Source of the DNA: a virus
Lineage: Duplodnaviria > Caudoviricetes
IMG/VR virus record: IMGVR_UViG_3300028048_000092
Location: 42,680-106,679 of that record
Length of the DNA stretch: 64,000 bases
Reading direction: 5' to 3' (one strand)
Positions 2,268 through 12,426 of the stretch are shown here, one piece after another. Positions within the stretch are counted from its first letter, which is position 1. Every line of letters begins with the position of its first letter. The notes beneath the pieces were generated by a model, which saw only the letters and a program-made list of their open reading frames with translations, was not told the DNA's origin and did no database searches. Both the position numbers and the translations under genes were made by a program.

Positions 2268-2639
2268 ATGGCACTTTAGAAAATCAGTTCGGTGAGAGCA
2301 GCCGCTCTCCTCGTCGCCACTGCAACCAATGTCTCCGATTTCAAGGACTCGAAAGAGTACCTGTTACAGGAGATATAGAGAGCGATGGTAAAAGGAGATT
2401 CTCAACTGGGAGTATATGAGTAGGCTGTAAAAGGCCTGCTCTTGTAGTACCCGGGAGAGGATAAGGAAGCTCTCACTGAACAAGTGATAAACCGTCTGTA
2501 GAAGGACTTACCGAAGTTCTATCAGAAGTCCTTGAAAGTCTATAGATGGCTCAAATGGGGGCTGCTCCCCGGAATGGCTTTAGCCTTTGGCTGCGGGATC
2601 CTGTGTGGATTCTGCTGCAAAGGGTTGGGGCTGTTCTGA
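2268..2639 (+). CDS. hypothetical protein with C-terminal membrane anchor (TAG=Glu, 123 aa)
   Basis: RBS AAGGAAG, ATG 2268, five in-frame TAG, TGA at 2637-2639; absent from the standard-code track. Confidence 0.7.
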
Positions 2640-2732
2640 ACGCAGTTATACATATTAGAGCTGGATTTCGCTTGCCCCGGGGAATTGGCCCCCGAATGCC
2701 GCGAACCAGCTTTATTTGTTTACCGTCTCAGT

Positions 2733-2781
2733 GTCTCTAGGCCAAAAGAGACGTCGTCCTGAGCAAGACGTTAAAAGGCTC
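2733..2781 (+). ncRNA. hairpin plus H-type pseudoknot RNA element
   Basis: GTCTCT/AGAGAC stem; CGTC/GACG stem whose loop GAGC can pair with downstream GCTC. Confidence 0.45.
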
Positions 2782-2844
2782 CGCGCTTTTTCCTTAAGAG
2801 GGCCTCTTCTATTTTGTTTTTCTTTTTATTTCCTTATTGTTTTG

Positions 2845-3600
2845 TAGAAGAGACTCTCCTAAGGCGAAAGCTAAAGGCTTCAGTTCACCAGAGCCTGCAA
2901 TAATAATCTGGCGAACCGGTCCTGCCGAGGCGAGCGAAAGCAGTTTCGGCTTTATAAGGACAGACCGATGCATCCGGTCAGGAATACAAAAGATGCCCTA
3001 GTGCTGCAGGTCAAGCACCCCAGACAGAAAGGGTTAAAATCGCAGTTGCTCTGGAAGCCTGATAAGCTTTCCCGTGGATACTTCCATTCGCGGACTGGAA
3101 GGAGGGACAGAAGAAAGGAATGTCAATTCTCTCTGAAGTCCAACCCGAAGAGCCGCCTTAAGTGGCATGAGCTGTATCACGCAGCACAAATGTGACGGGA
3201 CTTCCGGCAGATCCGGAAGGAGCTGAGAGGCGTTGTCCGGTGATGCGGACATCTGGCCAGCCCAATGGGGCGACACATGGAAGATTCGTATTCCATGTTG
3301 CGGAGGAACTGACGAGGCAGTGGTTCCTTCTGCAGTCCGAAAGGTTGAGATACCTGTAGGATGTTTGATGTACAGTCTCAGTACATCAACGACAGCAAAG
3401 CAAAGGAGATACAGAGGAGCTACACTTCTCTGATGTTGAAAGAAGTTTCGGGAAACATTCTATGAGTACAGGCTTTGACAAGCCAAAAGGCTCCGGATGC
3501 CAACTGAAATGTATTTTGACGAATAGCAGCAAGGTTCTATCAAGAGCTAAGCTGTGATGTAGATCAGGGAGCTGCCATATTGGGAAGGAGGTATGGCAGA
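2845..3600 (+). ncRNA. large structured ncRNA, GOLLD/ROOL-like (about 750 nt, ends approximate)
   Basis: No credible ORF; dense short GC-rich hairpins (CTTCCGG/CCGGAAG, TGTCCG/CGGACA, CATGGAA/TTCCATG, TTGATGTAC/GTACATCAA, CTGCCATA/TATGGCAG); AGCCAAAAGGCT element; next to a tRNA-like gene. Confidence 0.6.
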
Positions 3601-3611
3601 TCCTTTCTTAT

Positions 3612-3693
3612 GGGGCTGAGAAAAGTTTCGACAGCATGGAAAGCCAAAGTGCACCTGTCTGGACCCCCGGGGCAGTACCGGGCAGCTCCACCA
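3612..3693 (+). ncRNA. minimal tmRNA-like RNA (tRNA-like domain only)
   Basis: 5' GGGGCTGA...TTCGAC, 3' GGAC-CCCGG-GGCAGTA-CCGGG-CAGCTCCACCA; Ala-type G3.U70 acceptor stem; encoded CCA; no tag ORF. Confidence 0.8.
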
Positions 3694-3716
3694 ATTAAAA
3701 CACTAAGGAGGAAGAA

Positions 3717-3962
3717 ATGGAACTTAGAATCAGTAAACACGATCTGGGTGGAACTCATATAACTTTGACTAAAGCTAGTATAGGTTGTATTGAGAGAAAA
3801 ACTCTTAATAGAGTTTTAAAGAGGTTCGGCAAGCACTTACAAGTAGAGGAAGAGCTGTGTGATAGTGTTACATATGCTATACGCGGCTGTGTCCCTACAG
3901 TTAACTGGCTTTTTGAAGTTACATGTAAGTTCCCTCATATCAAAGTTGTAAGAGAGCAATAA
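3717..3962 (+). CDS. hypothetical protein
   Basis: RBS AAGGAGG, no TAG, ends TAA, followed by a hairpin. Confidence 0.7.
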   Translation: MELRISKHDLGGTHITLTKASIGCIERKTLNRVLKRFGKHLQVEEELCDSVTYAIRGCVPTVNWLFEVTCKFPHIKVVREQ

Positions 3963-3964
3963 TA

Positions 3965-4000
3965 AAGGCCTCCCAACTAAGGGAGGCCTTATCTCTTTTT
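3965..4000 (+). terminator. intrinsic terminator
   Basis: AAGGCCTCCC-aactaa-GGGAGGCCTT then T-run. Confidence 0.75.
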
Positions 4001-4026
4001 TACATAGCAGCCATTCCAAGCACCTT

Positions 4027-4058
4027 CTAAAAAGTTCCTTTATTATTGGCATAATAAG
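4027..4058 (+). promoter_or_regulatory. putative phage promoter CTAAAAA-N13-TGGCATAATAAG (second copy)
   Basis: Matches 2145-2176; immediately upstream of the tRNA-like RNA. Confidence 0.6.
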
Positions 4059-4061
4059 ATG

Positions 4062-4120
4062 GTGCTGAGGTAAAGGTGCCATAGGAGAAATCCGAGAGCC
4101 GGGTCCGATCCCCGGAGCAC
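4062..4120 (+). ncRNA. anticodon-less tRNA-like small RNA
   Basis: GTGCT/AGCAC closing stem; T-arm CCGGG-TCCGATC-CCCGG; GGA-GAAA-TCC tetraloop hairpin where the anticodon arm should be; own promoter and terminator (4127-4158). Confidence 0.5.
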
Positions 4121-4176
4121 ACTTAAGCTCCCTTATGGGAGCGCCCTATTTCTTTTTTACACTGTAGGTAGATTAT

Positions 4177-4623
4177 TCAGCGCCCGGGAGTGTCATATTC
4201 AAGTTCCCATCCAAGGGACTATATCTTATCTTTTTTAGCTGGGTACCATAGGCTGTTCTGGTCATTTTTAATGTAGACAACACCCGGAGCTATATTTGCA
4301 GGAGGAGTTCTGAGTCCCCATGCACCTGCGTTTCTATCATAGAGCCCTCTTTCAGGATTTAATATAGCCACCTGTTGCTTTCCCCTGAGATGTGGATCTA
4401 CTTGCTTTCCCCTGAGATGCGGATCTACACTGGCAGCAGGGGATTTATATCCTGCTTTTCTTGTATTTTTCCGGCTTGCTTTCTGCTGTGCTTCCCATTT
4501 TGCAGCGCCGTTGACTGCTTGTCCCCAGGGCTACCAGATTCTAGTAGTTCCCTTTTCAACCGGAGCGTTCCCAGCTGAATATGTTGCAGCTATCTTCCTG
4601 AGTGTCTCTTTGTAAGTATGCAT
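4177..4623 (-). CDS. hypothetical, probable internal virion protein (TAG=Glu, 148 aa)
   Basis: MHTYKETLRKIAA leader; two TAG; 27-nt tandem repeat encoding VDPHLRGKQ twice; ends TGA. Confidence 0.7.
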
Positions 4624-4648
4624 AATAACCTTTCGCGTTACACTTCAA

Positions 4649-4661
4649 GGGGGGGGGGGGG
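4649..4661. repeat. G13 homopolymer, intergenic
   Basis: 13 consecutive G about 25 nt upstream of the minus-strand start at 4623. Confidence 0.9.
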
Positions 4662-4673
4662 CACGTAAAAGGC

Positions 4674-5891
4674 TTATTTTAGAGGCTTGAAAGAAGGTAC
4701 CTTTTTAATAGTGCGGATCACCTGCTCCCCGTAAATGCCCATTGTACATTCAAACTGCCTGGGAGTGCCTTTGTATTTGGGACACCATAAGTAGTCCTTA
4801 TGATCGAAGTTGAAGCGCTTGTCATCCCAGCACCCATTGCACACATTGTAATTTATCACTCTGTAAGGAGTATAAAACTCGCAGGAAGGCAAGGAGAATC
4901 CTGAAATAAGAACTACAGGCACCCTGCAGCACCATGCCAGCCAGGACATCCCTGATCCAAGTCCTATAAAGAAGTCGGCATCTTTTATAAGGTTTATCCT
5001 CTATTGCAAAGGCAAAGCTCCCGTAGCGTCCTCCACTCCCCAGGGAACATGGTTCCATATAAGTCCATTCCCGTAGTTTCTATCTTTGTTTATGCAGTAG
5101 ACCTTATATCCCTCTTCTTTAAGAAATCTTATGACAGAGTCCCATCCACAGGGATTGTTCCAGTGCTTTGTCTGGGAGCTTGCCTGTGTGGATATGACAC
5201 AGTACTTCTCTTTTATCTTTCTTTTTGCGGAAAGGTCTACTCTCGGTGGAATATCTTCATCCGATACATCAAGTATATGTGCAGCTGTCTTATGCAGTCC
5301 GACTTGTCTGAAGTCAATAGGCTGCCACTAAGTGTTCCCTCCGAAGAACAGCCCCATGTAGTAAGTAGCATAAGGCTTCAAATCAATGTTCTCTTTAACA
5401 GAATAAAAATAAATATCGGGATACTGCTTCTACAGAAGCTCCTTTATATGGCCTGGCATAATGCAGTGCAGTCTGCAGTGATGCTTCTGCTGGAATCTCT
5501 ATACATAAGAGAACCATCCCAGAGTATCTCCTATGGCGCCGTCGGGGAAGTTTATCACAACGTCCTTCTGAGAAGCATCGTAGGTATGGGTAAAGAGGAT
5601 CTCTTTCCTGTCAGGGGAAAGTATCTGCAGCTTATAGTTGATGAAGTACATTTTGCTGCTGAACACTTTTCCACCTGCTTTTACAAGCCCGTTGTAGAAG
5701 ACCGTCCCGGTGTCCTGATCTGTAAGGGTGAACCAATGGTCTCCGCTGTCCTTGGGGAAGCTTATTCTAAGTCCCTTGTTGAAGTCATATTTAATGCCCT
5801 CTACAGCTTCCATGGTAAACTGGGAAGGTACCTGCCAGTACACCGGAGGTTTTACAATAGGTGCAGGGGAGAGGGAATCGGAAGTCGACAT
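4674..5891 (-). CDS. TibC/Aah-like autotransporter O-heptosyltransferase (TAG=Glu, 405 aa)
   Basis: GIKYDFNKGLRI, GDTLGWFSYV*RF, QPIDFRQVGLH, PLQ*RINL, FIGLGSGMSWLAW, CNGCW...CP...FEC cysteine cluster; standard-code pieces 5499..5891 and 4674..4949 are in one frame. Confidence 0.9.
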
Positions 5892-5987
5892 ATAAAGGCT
5901 CCTGTTTGATGTTTTGCTCTAAGTGATGTATACAAGGAATATACGCATTCGCGTATAAGTATAAAGGAGAAAGGGAAAGTAGGGCTT

Positions 5988-8900
5988 ATGGCTGACAGCA
6001 GCTTCTGGAATATAGGAAATATAGAATATCCTGTAATACAAGGACAAGCGGGAAAGCCCTTCTACCATTAGCAAGGTCCTCTCATACAGTTCGGGTAGTA
6101 GCTGGTCGATAACAGCTGCCTTTGCAAGTACAGATATGCAAGGTACTTTGCTTACTACTGTGCAGTTCCTTCAGACAGCTCTTCCATAGCCTTTTTCAAG
6201 AACTTCGAGCAGGTTCCCTGGGAAGGGGGGCATAATATAAAGTTCCTTGATTATACCCAGGAAACAGCCAAAGGTTACCAATGGGGAATGTTCAAAGGAC
6301 CTGTATATCTGGGCTGCTATCCAACGGGTCACTTTACTACAGGGAAGTGGCTTCCGGTGGAGCTTCCCTATGAGAATGTTTCATAGGACCTTAATGTAAC
6401 TTCTCCTTCTCCTTATTATATATATTAGGAAAATGAGGACTACAACTACTCCTTGAAGTGCATGATAGTAAGTTCCTATTAGTGCTGCAATGGGGAGGAG
6501 GGCTGTGGAGTAGAAGTACAGAGAGGCTAGTACTTTGAAAGCTCTTTCCCATTCTGCTATGCATAGTTCTTTGTAAGTAACCTTGATGCAAGCGATGCTT
6601 CTCAGGTAACAGCTGCTCTTATAGAAGGCTCCCAGGGATGTGTATGCACTCCTCCTTACAGGATGCTTAAGAAGTTCTAGCAGTACGATTGCTCTACAGC
6701 TACTATAAGGGTATTCAAGTAGATGGTGCTTCTTCCAGAAGAACTCGACAGATGCTCTTAGTTCTGTCCCTCCTGCCAATAGGAGCTTCCTGCTTTAGCT
6801 CCCAATGCTGCTTTTTTAGCTAAGAAGGATTGTGTTTATTGGGTTTTATGGAAGTTCCCCCTTCCATAGGACTGCAGTGATTGTTCCAAGACTTTACATA
6901 AGATATAGTGGCAGTTGGTAACGGATTATAAAGATATCCCCGGGGAAGTTGTAGGGAAGGGGCCTGGGTGGAAGCCCCTGAGTTTCCATGATCCTGACGA
7001 GACCTTTACATACTGTGAATAGGAAGCTCCTGGAAAAGTCATCTTCCAGTGGCAGTATGTAAGGAATCCTCAGCCTTCCCAGGGAGAGATATAGGGCAGC
7101 CGCCCCGCTGTAAAGCCCGATGAAAACCCCTGCAAAGAATACTGCAGGAAGAACCCTCTGGCAAGGCCCTCCATATCAGACTCTTTGTCAGGTGCCTCCG
7201 ACAGTACTTTGTAGAAGCACTTTCCCTGCAATGAGCCCTAGCCTCCTCCTATGAAGTACAGAGAGTTCCTCCATACTGAGTTTGATGTATATGAGCTGTC
7301 ACTTCGAGTTACTGTCATTACAAGAGATCAGGTGAAGGAGTGCTATCAGAGCTATAAGATAGATACTCCCTTATAGGACTGGCATTGGAATCTTATTTAG
7401 AATGCTGTCTATGATTATCAGCTTACAAGCTACTTATATGGTACTTCCTTTCGGGGGACTGAAGTAAAGAACGGCTTTATCCATAAGTATGTTGTGCAGT
7501 TACATGGAGAAGAGCCTCCTGAAGATCCTTCCGGGGAGTATCAGGGAGACGACTTCGACATAGTAGCTGATGGAAGCTCCTACAACTTTGTCGATAAAAG
7601 TCAGAACCTTTGTCAGTATGCTTATCAAGTTTATTTAGCAGAGAAGTGTAAATGCTTTGGTGATTGTATTTCAGACTCCCGTTCCTGCAGCACATCAAAT
7701 CAGAGTGAATATATAAGTGGCTGGGGGTGCTCCAAATGGCAAAGTCTTGGTCAGCATTCTTAGTATTAGATAAGAAAGGAAATGCGGTTCTGCCTGGATA
7801 AGTGGAGCCGGAACCCGGAAGAGTCTGTACACAAGTAGTGGGTTTATACTACTTTGTCTGATGATCCTTATTTCTGTGAATAGTATCCCCAGCCACTTAA
7901 AAGGGGGATTATCTACGATAACTATGTATTTACACCAAACTGTTCCGATTCTACAAGTATAGTGGTATCTTTCCCTTTTGTTTCTTATCCCTGGTGTGGA
8001 AAACAGCCAAAAGCTTATTAGGGATATAAGGCATAGGACAGCCTATCCAGCTCCACTTTACTTCAAGTAGTGGACAATGTAATAGATCTTACCAATACAG
8101 ATCCTCCGATATGTACCGTATATGGATTTATTGATCCTCACAAGGTGGCGGTTTGGCCAGGGTTTATTTCAGAGCGGCCTGTGCGACCAGCGCCTTGCTG
8201 CGGAGAAGAGGCCTTCTATTCCGATAGCTGTCATGCTAAGGGCAAAATTTATTAGCCTCCCATTATAAAGTGGCCCAAGTCCTGTTTGTAGCTTCCAGCG
8301 TACGGAGTGAGAGTTTATATAGCTGCTTTTGGACATGCCTGGCCTGGGTTCATTTCCACGTAGAAGACCGTTGATTCCCAGACTAAGTACTATGTAAATG
8401 CTTCCAAGTTCCTGCAGTACTTCAACTGTACCAAGCAGTCTTAGCTGTAGTTCTATTAGGAGCTCCCATCGTAGTACCCTGAAGGATGGGATCCGCCTTT
8501 CTCAGGCTTCTATCAGACCGATTATCTTCCTGCAAAGGGTAACTGGTGCATGCCTCCCATAGGCTTCTTCAACTAGCTGTCCCCTGTGAACTTCAACCAG
8601 GGCTCTATAGCTTAGTGGGCAGGAGGTTCGGGAAAAGTCCTTTTGTATATATTCTCCGGGCATGCTTCCCGCTGCTAGTCACAGTTAGAGGTCGGCATAA
8701 GAGCACTTGCAGGGAAGAACATCGGCGGCAGAAAAGCTATAGGCGTCTAGATCCCCCTTAACAAGAAAGGGGCAGGAGATAACGGGACCATAGCATATTC
8801 TTATGATTGTGTTGATGTCAATCAGTTTATAGATCCCAATAGTGAGTACTATCATAAAGGTGTCTTATAGAGAGCCTATGAGAATCAGGATATAACAGGG

Positions 8901-11778: not shown

Positions 11779-12426
11779 ATGGCCGACAAAAACATCCAAC
11801 TTAAAGACAGAAACGAAAATCTTCTTTTTCCACGGGTAAAACTTACCAATGCTGTAAATGACATTGGTTTTATTACTTCGGCGGAAGTCAGCAGCAATTA
11901 TGCTACCAAATCGGAGATCGCTGACATCATCTCTGCAAAACTCAGCAGAGTCGTTGTCGATGCTCTCCCGACAGAAGACATCCAGACCAACACCATCTAC
12001 ATGGTCCCAAACGGAGGAAGTAACTCCTCCAACGTTTACACCGAATATCTCTACACTAACAACAAGTGGGAGATCATCGGAAGCACCGATACGGACCTGA
12101 CCGGTTATGCTACCGAGACTTATGTCAGCAATTATGTTGCTTCGCAGGGCTTTGCCACTGAAACTTATGTCAGTGACTATGTTGGCTCTCAGGGCTTTGC
12201 TACTCAGTCCTGGGTCACCAGCCAGAATTATGCAACTGAAAGCTATGTGAGCTCCACCTATGCTCCGATCAGCAATGCTGCTCTCGAAGGCACCCCGACC
12301 GCTCCGAATATCACCAGCGAGTCCTCCGGAACTCAGATCGCAAACAAGAACTATGTTGAAGGCTATGTCAACGACATGTTCCTTGCGCAGAACCTTGTTT
12401 ACGTCGTTCTCTCCGACTCTCTGTAA
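11779..12426 (+). CDS. tail fibre-like repeat protein
   Basis: VVDALPTEDI..NTIYMVP..YTEYLY..WEIIG, ATETYV repeats, ALEGTPTAP; no TAG. Confidence 0.8.
   Translation: MADKNIQLKDRNENLLFPRVKLTNAVNDIGFITSAEVSSNYATKSEIADIISAKLSRVVVDALPTEDIQTNTIYMVPNGGSNSSNVYTEYLYTNNKWEIIGSTDTDLTGYATETYVSNYVASQGFATETYVSDYVGSQGFATQSWVTSQNYATESYVSSTYAPISNAALEGTPTAPNITSESSGTQIANKNYVEGYVNDMFLAQNLVYVVLSDSL

Follow-up and report, generated by a model that had tools for sequence, protein, structure and literature searches.

The window analysed here is a 64,000-nt stretch of a bovine-gut virus contig (IMG/VR record IMGVR_UViG_3300028048_000092; 106,679 bp, about 57% complete, no terminal repeats), and positions given below are those of the window unless the record is named. 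On its plus strand, in an ORF-poor zone preceding TAG-rich genes that start at 4674 and 5988, lies an 82-base element which our sequence analysis confirmed as a phage gene for a CDS-less tmRNA, with the tRNA-like domain (TLD) closed by a stub of helix 2 (hereafter mini-tmRNA; Table 1). The gene has a normal order, the 5′ strand coming before the 3′ strand inside the 82 nt, and it has neither a D-stem nor an anticodon arm. The full mRNA-like domain of a tmRNA (resume codon, tag frame, stop and pseudoknots) is absent from 3612-3693, and the internal 28 nt between UUCGAC and GGAC hold no in-frame stop and no tag frame. A preliminary description of this DNA had listed the hallmarks of a tmRNA tRNA-like domain (UUCGAC, stemless D-loop, GGAC, G3.U70 and CCA), a short stem-loop of about 30 nt in place of the pseudoknots and tag ORF, and a normal rather than a permuted arrangement; all the hallmarks are indeed present, the stem-loop measures 28 nt, and the order can be read directly from the letters.

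Table 1 Features at and around the mini-tmRNA gene (window positions).
Feature	Position	Strand	Remarks
Structured RNA of about 0.7 kb, abundant, no convincing ORF	2885-3610	+ (inferred)	Metatranscriptome contigs; not part of the mini-tmRNA
Hairpin with U-rich tail, terminator-like	3572-3609	+	3 nt upstream of the mini-tmRNA
Mini-tmRNA gene, tRNA-like domain only, CCA encoded	3612-3693	+	82 bases; sequence, model R1, signature pattern
Acceptor 5′ strand GGGGCUG	3612-3618	+	Pairs with 3683-3689, giving G3.U70
Stemless D-loop AGAAAAGU, 'AG' class, with UUCGAC	3619-3632	+	UUCGAC at 3627-3632
Helix 2 stub, a 28-nt stem-loop with conserved apical motif UGGAAAGCCAAAGUGCAC	3633-3660	+	Replaces pseudoknots and tag frame
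GGAC and one extra C, 5′ of the T-stem	3661-3665	+	Extra C is an insertion relative to model R1
T-arm CCCGG / GGCAGUA / CCGGG	3666-3682	+	5 bp, 7-nt loop
Acceptor 3′ strand CAGCUCC, discriminator A, CCA	3683-3693	+	A and encoded CCA at 3690-3693
TAG-free 81-aa ORF	3717-3962	+	RBS AAGGAGG 24 nt after the CCA
Bidirectional terminator, strong	3965-3990		After the 81-aa ORF

The mini-tmRNA and the downstream 81-aa ORF probably form one transcription unit; the ORF product belongs to no Pfam or PHROG family and had no usable Atlas match. No sigma-70-like promoter for the mini-tmRNA was found on the plus strand, and the hairpin adjoining its 5′ end is a candidate terminator of the upstream RNA and/or a candidate 5′ leader hairpin of the mini-tmRNA precursor. 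Further downstream, a minus-strand gene (4674-6074) adjoining the tail-gene block encodes a TibC-like/family 9 heptosyltransferase (PF21129, PF01075) with five in-frame TAGs, and this glycosyltransferase, used as a query, retrieved no relatives among viral contigs. In a related strain (DNA run X4), 496 bases of the interval 4177-4674 are missing, with two other letters at the joint; the ORF translations reveal a direct repeat in this interval (GKQVDPHLRGKQ).

A degenerate signature (GGGGNUG, UYCGAC, CANCUCCACCA and spacers) matched the window once and had no match in 100 shuffles. A covariance model (R1), built from 16 other viral mini-tmRNAs with the window left out, matched 3612-3693 at full length (positions 1-81 of 81, 58.2 bits, E 2e-11), and it had no second match, neither in the window nor over all 106,679 bp of the record, which makes the gene single-copy. 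The earlier reading as an 82-nt tmRNA reduced to its tRNA-like domain was thus borne out by the R1 score, in the same model family as the mini-tmRNA of mycobacteriophage DS6A (see below). The checks with standard tools proposed alongside that reading were successful only in part: ARAGORN reported neither a tRNA nor a tmRNA, whether run on the window or on the complete record of 106,679 bp, and at the Rfam gathering score the element had no match, but with relaxed thresholds tmRNA models alone matched, over the T-arm and acceptor only, with 18-24 bits against cut-offs of 47-50 (alpha_tmRNA, 20-24 bits; tmRNA_permuted, 18-24 bits), and R1 covered the full length. Taken alone, the 82-mer has a minimum free energy (MFE) within the range expected from its composition (z -0.87), and homology and covariation, rather than stability, therefore provide the support for the mini-tmRNA. 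In the window copy, two of the five modelled pairs of helix 2 are non-standard under R1; a register with two single-base bulges, read from the sequence, gives six pairs.

Other identities were considered and rejected. A canonical tRNA (RF00005) does not fit an element that has no D-stem or anticodon arm and for which ARAGORN called no tRNA; a permuted two-piece tmRNA is at odds with the normal order, and the second piece was not found in the record; and the element is not the missing amber suppressor tRNA, having no anticodon arm and no CUA. The preliminary description had also considered that a separate coding piece might complete a normal tmRNA, and none came to light: the full tmRNA model (RF00023) and the permuted tmRNA models had no match elsewhere in the ~57%-complete 106.7-kb record. 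The record yielded no amber suppressor tRNA. Its sole RF00005 match lies outside the window (record positions 11975-12057, plus strand, 83 nt, 36.2 bits) and is missed by ARAGORN; visual inspection shows a good acceptor and T-arm together with a long additional hairpin, whereas a normal D-arm is lacking and the apparent anticodon loop, CUUAUAC, carries UAU instead of CUA.

The element belongs to a large family. A signature search of viral contigs, with a total length of about 65-95 nt, gave at least 119 contigs, and among the matches listed 117 of 119 had the same architecture (the exceptions being L001 and L087). In an alignment of 103 R1 matches, corresponding to 76 distinct rows among the matches listed, 96.5% of the cells were paired, compared with 70% in shuffles and 46-59% when partners were slid, and both-side changes were present at 18 of the 19 pairs. 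The acceptor stem was paired in 100% of cases, its third pair being G.U in 71 of 76 rows and its fifth covarying (GC 49, AU 15, CG 7, UA 4); the T-stem was likewise 100% paired, and both it and helix 2 showed double changes at all five of their pairs. UUCGAC was invariant and GGA(C) nearly invariant in alignments A1-A3, and the invariant single-stranded columns are recognisable as marks of a tmRNA, not of a tRNA. ARAGORN called none of the 117 listed mini-tmRNAs correctly, and a tRNA gene was present within 1 kb of the mini-tmRNA in only 20 of these contigs.

BLAST searches with positions 2500-5000 and with the 82-mer against 50,697 phage records revealed no relative, the sole match being a chance 34-nt match in a mycobacteriophage CDS. 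A metagenome scan for short forms carrying the T-loop GGCAGUA yielded two further sequences: one (L254/L260) with 80% identity to the window element over 85 nt, and a marine one (L256/L257) of the same T-loop class. The former has the apical motif UGGAAAGCC-R-AAG-Y-GCAC in common with the window, and the comparison of the two revealed pair-preserving differences in helix 2 (UAUAU/AUAUA vs AGCAU/UGUCU) and in the T-stem (CUCGG/CCGAG vs CCCGG/CCGGG in the window); L254/L260 showed no protein homology to the window phage and no similarity upstream of the mini-tmRNA. By eye, L260 (6141-6260, minus-strand sense) also has a promoter-like site (TTGACA-17-TATTAT) and a GC-rich leader hairpin, the latter without a U-tract, directly before the 5′ end of its mini-tmRNA; the window, too, has an adjoining hairpin. 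Another contig, L008, is similar in size to the window record and carries a mini-tmRNA of the same R1 score, also wedged between two genes. Its downstream gene differs from that of the window, the gene downstream of the mini-tmRNA thus not being conserved at this other locus, and the window's putative portal protein, the single protein compared, had no match in L008.

In the literature searched we found no description of the mini-tmRNA family as widespread, and the 2025 tmRNA database holds nine unique 'Standard, no CDS' sequences and 79 phage tmRNAs (PMC11915505). CDS-less tmRNAs are thus rated rarities, missed by ARAGORN and by Rfam gathering scores, yet they are common in phage DNA. The window mini-tmRNA is a real but fairly ordinary addition to a known, under-recorded type.

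An unusual part of the window copy, absent from the preliminary description, is its T-loop, GGCAGUA, which lacks the usual U54-U55 and departs from the usual UUCRAnU. Among the matches listed, the second and third bases of the T-loop went together with the D-loop: UC was accompanied by GG in 53 of 53 mini-tmRNAs, UU by GA (with no GG) in 4 of 4, and GC by AG in 8 of 10 according to a crude rule, the two GC exceptions (L021, L030) also carrying AUAG adjoining UUCGAC. The elbow of a tRNA is held by the contacts 18-55 and 19-56 (tRNA numbering), and coordinated D-loop and T-loop classes are the pattern expected if these contacts are kept. Because the two classes covary, the combination of a GGCAGUA T-loop with an 'AG' D-loop reads as a working variant and not as decay, and the window copy illustrates how a tRNA-like elbow can be preserved by coordinated changes in both loops.

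The same combination occurs in full-length tmRNAs. Scanning the genomes of 185,579 species with the pattern GGGGCAGUACC-NNN-CAGCUCCACCA gave at least 119 matches; the 119 listed comprised about 100 from Candidatus Saccharibacteria/Saccharimonadales, about 15 from Alphaproteobacteria and 2 from Pseudobdellovibrionaceae, and the AG D-loop was present in 90 of the 94 full-length tmRNAs with T-loop GGCAGUA among the matches listed. Those from Saccharibacteria are one-piece tmRNAs of 373-417 nt that start with GGGGCUGAUAUAGCUUUCGAC. In none of the listed Saccharibacteria loci (L121-L239, e.g. L158, CP075337.1) did ARAGORN call a tmRNA, though each of them holds a standard tmRNA of the GGCAGUA/AG type, which makes this group a blind spot of the program; alphaproteobacterial GGCAGUA tmRNAs are reported by ARAGORN as permuted.

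Among the known systems closest to the element is the 'TLD only' tmRNA of mycobacteriophage DS6A (tmRNA Website tmID 11587, 'TLD only'/'Standard, no CDS'), described as 'little more than the TLD' (Hudson, Lau and Williams 2014, PMC4131195). R1 matched it end to end (JN698994, 28478-28560; positions 1-81 of 81) with 57.7 bits, compared with 58.2 bits for the window, and therefore both fit the model equally well. Like the window element, the DS6A molecule is phage-encoded, in one piece and about 82 nt long, with a 7-bp acceptor containing G3.U70, a stemless D-loop, (U)UCGAC, a short helix 2 stub and a T-arm. It differs in having the T-loop UUCGAUU with a GG D-loop instead of GGCAGUA with an AG D-loop, in having GCAC for GGAC, and in ending with ACUA, its CCA not being encoded, whereas that of the window is; the extra C 5′ of the T-stem and the setting, an unrelated TAG-recoded rumen phage, are particular to the window.

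With the one-piece tmRNA of Saccharibacteria (SsrA, RF00023), the window element has in common the acceptor GGGGCUG/CAGCUCC-ACCA, the T-loop GGCAGUA, a T-stem made of G and C only, an AG-type D-loop, UUCGAC and GGAC, but about 300 nt of the 373-417 nt are missing from it (resume codon, tag frame and four pseudoknots), and RF00023 itself gave no match to the window element. In the two-piece tmRNA of Alphaproteobacteria (RF01849, RF04321), the T-arm consensus (CCGGG-GGCgGUA-CCCGG in Rfam alpha_tmRNA) matches the T-arm type of the window, whereas the gene is permuted, the acceptor 3′ piece coming first and the coding piece after it; the window has the normal order and no coding piece. CDS-less organellar tmRNAs, set beside the window by description only, likewise consist of a tRNA-like domain without a tag frame (jakobid mitochondria; Mallomonadaceae plastids, ~65 bp; PMC11915505, PMC3590771), but the mitochondrial forms are permuted, and all of these tmRNAs belong to organelles whose SmpB is nucleus-encoded.

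The head of the mini-tmRNA, which is of Saccharibacteria or alphaproteobacterial tmRNA type, is a possible host clue for a very divergent recoded rumen phage. One tentative and rather unlikely lead is that this head copies that of the host, that the host belongs to Saccharibacteria (TM7; ultra-small CPR), and that the phage (~190 kb) disarms its SmpB. Saccharibacteria, the candidate host group, encode SmpB. No independent link to such a host emerged: a comparison of 20 kb of the window with 401 Saccharimonadia genomes returned only the 3′ end of the tmRNA (3653-3706), with no spacer and no prophage, and the phage glycosyltransferase had no homologue in 301 Saccharimonadia genomes. A phage of ~190 kb is also large for hosts of 0.7-1.2 Mb, which speaks against such a host, and alphaproteobacterial hosts are a better fit for the marine sequences that share this T-loop (L256/L257). 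If the lead were true, the T-loop/D-loop classes of mini-tmRNAs would be a marker for host prediction.

Immediately upstream of the mini-tmRNA, Logan contigs from three rumen metatranscriptome runs (two studies) revealed the 0.7-kb RNA of Table 1, with a depth of 137 for contig 2896-3607, 33 for 2907-3590 and 10.7 for 2885-3610, the flanks being at 0-9. The RNA contigs of both studies stop at 3590-3610, and a DNA contig from a ~95% identical strain continues across (3040-3649), a weak hint at an RNA 3′ end just before 3612, bearing in mind that assembled contigs cannot show small RNAs, RNA ends or strand. Either a terminator or RNase P cutting at the mini-tmRNA 5′ end would account for such an end, and this cutting may also mature the 0.7-kb RNA. 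Two contigs (3597-3830 and 3654-3956) cross the mini-tmRNA at a depth of 5.7-6.75, which may reflect DNA carry-over or read-through, and the mature 82-nt RNA is not expected in such assemblies.

The interval 2885-3611 folds far better than shuffles (MFE z-score -4.6), and with E values up to 10 it had no Rfam match, ROOL, GOLLD and RNase P included. Indels of 1 nt and 5 nt separate the strains within it, and, placed on its MFE fold, strain variants kept 10 pairs, broke 7 and fell on unpaired positions in 15 cases. The related locus L260 lacks this RNA, which is possibly a new, large ncRNA of phages adjoining a tRNA-like gene and may even be a more novel object than the mini-tmRNA itself.

In our best explanation, to which we assign a probability of roughly 0.55, the mini-tmRNA competes with host tmRNA for SmpB and tagging is lost as a result. 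A precursor would be cut by RNase P at 3611/3612, the encoded CCA would form the 3′ end, and host AlaRS would charge the molecule through G3.U70 and A73. The tmRNA-specific UUCGAC and GGAC would then provide for binding of host SmpB, and of EF-Tu once the molecule is charged, putting it in competition with host tmRNA. Stalled ribosomes would be left untagged, or their nascent chain would be moved to an Ala-TLD that carries no tag message, and either outcome would turn down host tagging and proteolysis during phage infection. Since no SmpB was found in the ~57%-complete 106.7-kb phage record, the SmpB partner must be that of the host, although the missing part could still contain a full tmRNA or an SmpB gene of the phage.

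The architecture, the large covarying family and the conserved elbow, all of them seen in sequence, argue for this explanation. In E. coli, the DS6A form acts as an inhibitor of the cell's own tmRNA (PMC11915505), and PMC4131195 reports, after Mao et al. 2009, that a DS6A-like molecule strongly inhibits tmRNA whether chargeable or not, perhaps through titration of SmpB, which is what the literature proposes for such molecules (PMC4131195, PMC11915505). The commonness of mini-tmRNAs in phage DNA suggests that phages widely resort to interfering with trans-translation, although the benefit to the phage of blocking it is a presumption. Counted against the explanation in the window copy are the mismatches or bulges of helix 2 and the extra C 5′ of the T-stem, together with the terminator-like hairpin 3 nt upstream and the lack of a plus-strand sigma-70-like promoter.

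Productive rescue without a tag, in which Ala-TLD and SmpB enter non-stop ribosomes and accept the peptide, and the peptidyl-TLD drops off or is hydrolysed to free ribosomes for the phage with no proteolysis mark, appears unlikely to us, even though it would account for the family-wide conservation of the charging features (G3.U70, A73, CCA), which pure titration of SmpB would not need. The reaction would have no stop codon or template to finish it, and we know of no release step after peptidyl transfer to a TLD. Such rescue is the role proposed for CDS-less organellar tmRNAs, which some mitochondria and plastids have retained along with SmpB (PMC11915505), and peptidyl transfer to a TLD-only tmRNA occurs in vitro (Shimizu and Ueda 2006, cited in PMC3895274); the effect reported for E. 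coli in PMC4131195, inhibition independent of chargeability, does not favour it. It is more doubtful still that the gene is mainly a processing signal, its tRNA-like fold recruiting RNase P to set the 3′ end of the 0.7-kb RNA and/or the 5′ end of the 81-aa mRNA. Analogues are the mascRNA element for MALAT1 and tRNA punctuation in organelles, and the stop of the RNA contigs of two studies just before 3612, where the DNA contig continues, is consistent with such a role, as is the position of the mini-tmRNA 24 nt upstream of an RBS and, in L008, likewise between two genes. The hairpin and U-tract at 3572-3609, however, account for the 3′ end on their own, the upstream RNA is absent at L260, and any tRNA-like fold would suit RNase P, leaving the conserved UUCGAC, GGAC and G3.U70 unexplained.

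We consider it very improbable that the molecule acts off the ribosome, as an alanine donor for aminoacyl-tRNA-dependent transferases, or as a decoy for host defences that sense or cut tRNA or tmRNA: the conserved alanine identity set and CCA, in a molecule that has no anticodon and so cannot decode, would suit these roles, but no such transferase or defence partner was seen beside the gene, and the conserved tmRNA-only motifs point to SmpB. The least credible reading makes the element non-functional, either an attP site or the remnant of a host ssrA 3′ end acquired through integration and excision. tmRNA genes are common integration sites (PMC11915505), and 3653-3706, the tmRNA 3′ end, matches Saccharimonadia genomes with 85-94% identity over 30-47 nt. 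An attP site, however, needs the 3′ part only, whereas the element also has the 5′ strand, D-loop and helix 2 and fits the covarying family model end to end; no exact core longer than the conserved motif was seen, and no integrase (tyrosine or serine recombinase) or resolvase was found in the ~57%-complete record.

The preliminary description had offered titration of host SmpB and, as a second option, rescue of stalled ribosomes without a degradation tag, had connected both with pausing of phage ribosomes at TAG codons, and had proposed looking for co-occurrence with recoding in related phages. With TAG read as sense, open-frame cover of the window rose from 0.69 to 0.95, compared with 0.77 and 0.83 for the other two stops. 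This TAG-specific gain was seen in the window only, among 87 sources of at least 6 kb (86 listed viral loci and the window); as a family trait, the proposed link did not hold, the window being the one recoded source in 87 and none of the 86 listed viral loci showing co-occurrence, and the mini-tmRNA family is therefore not tied to recoding. Entry of tmRNA-SmpB needs an empty mRNA channel, and a ribosome that pauses at an internal TAG does not qualify as its direct substrate, because mRNA fills the channel unless it is first cut. A benefit in a recoded phage is conceivable, slow TAG decoding being kept from leading to tagging and mRNA loss, and is not needed to explain the gene. The window stands as a counter-example to the idea that mini-tmRNAs accompany stop-codon recoding. 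In alignments of paralogues within the genome, a small sample of 23 informative positions, TAG stood opposite Glu at eight and opposite Gln at one, which leans towards Glu as the possible meaning of TAG in this record.
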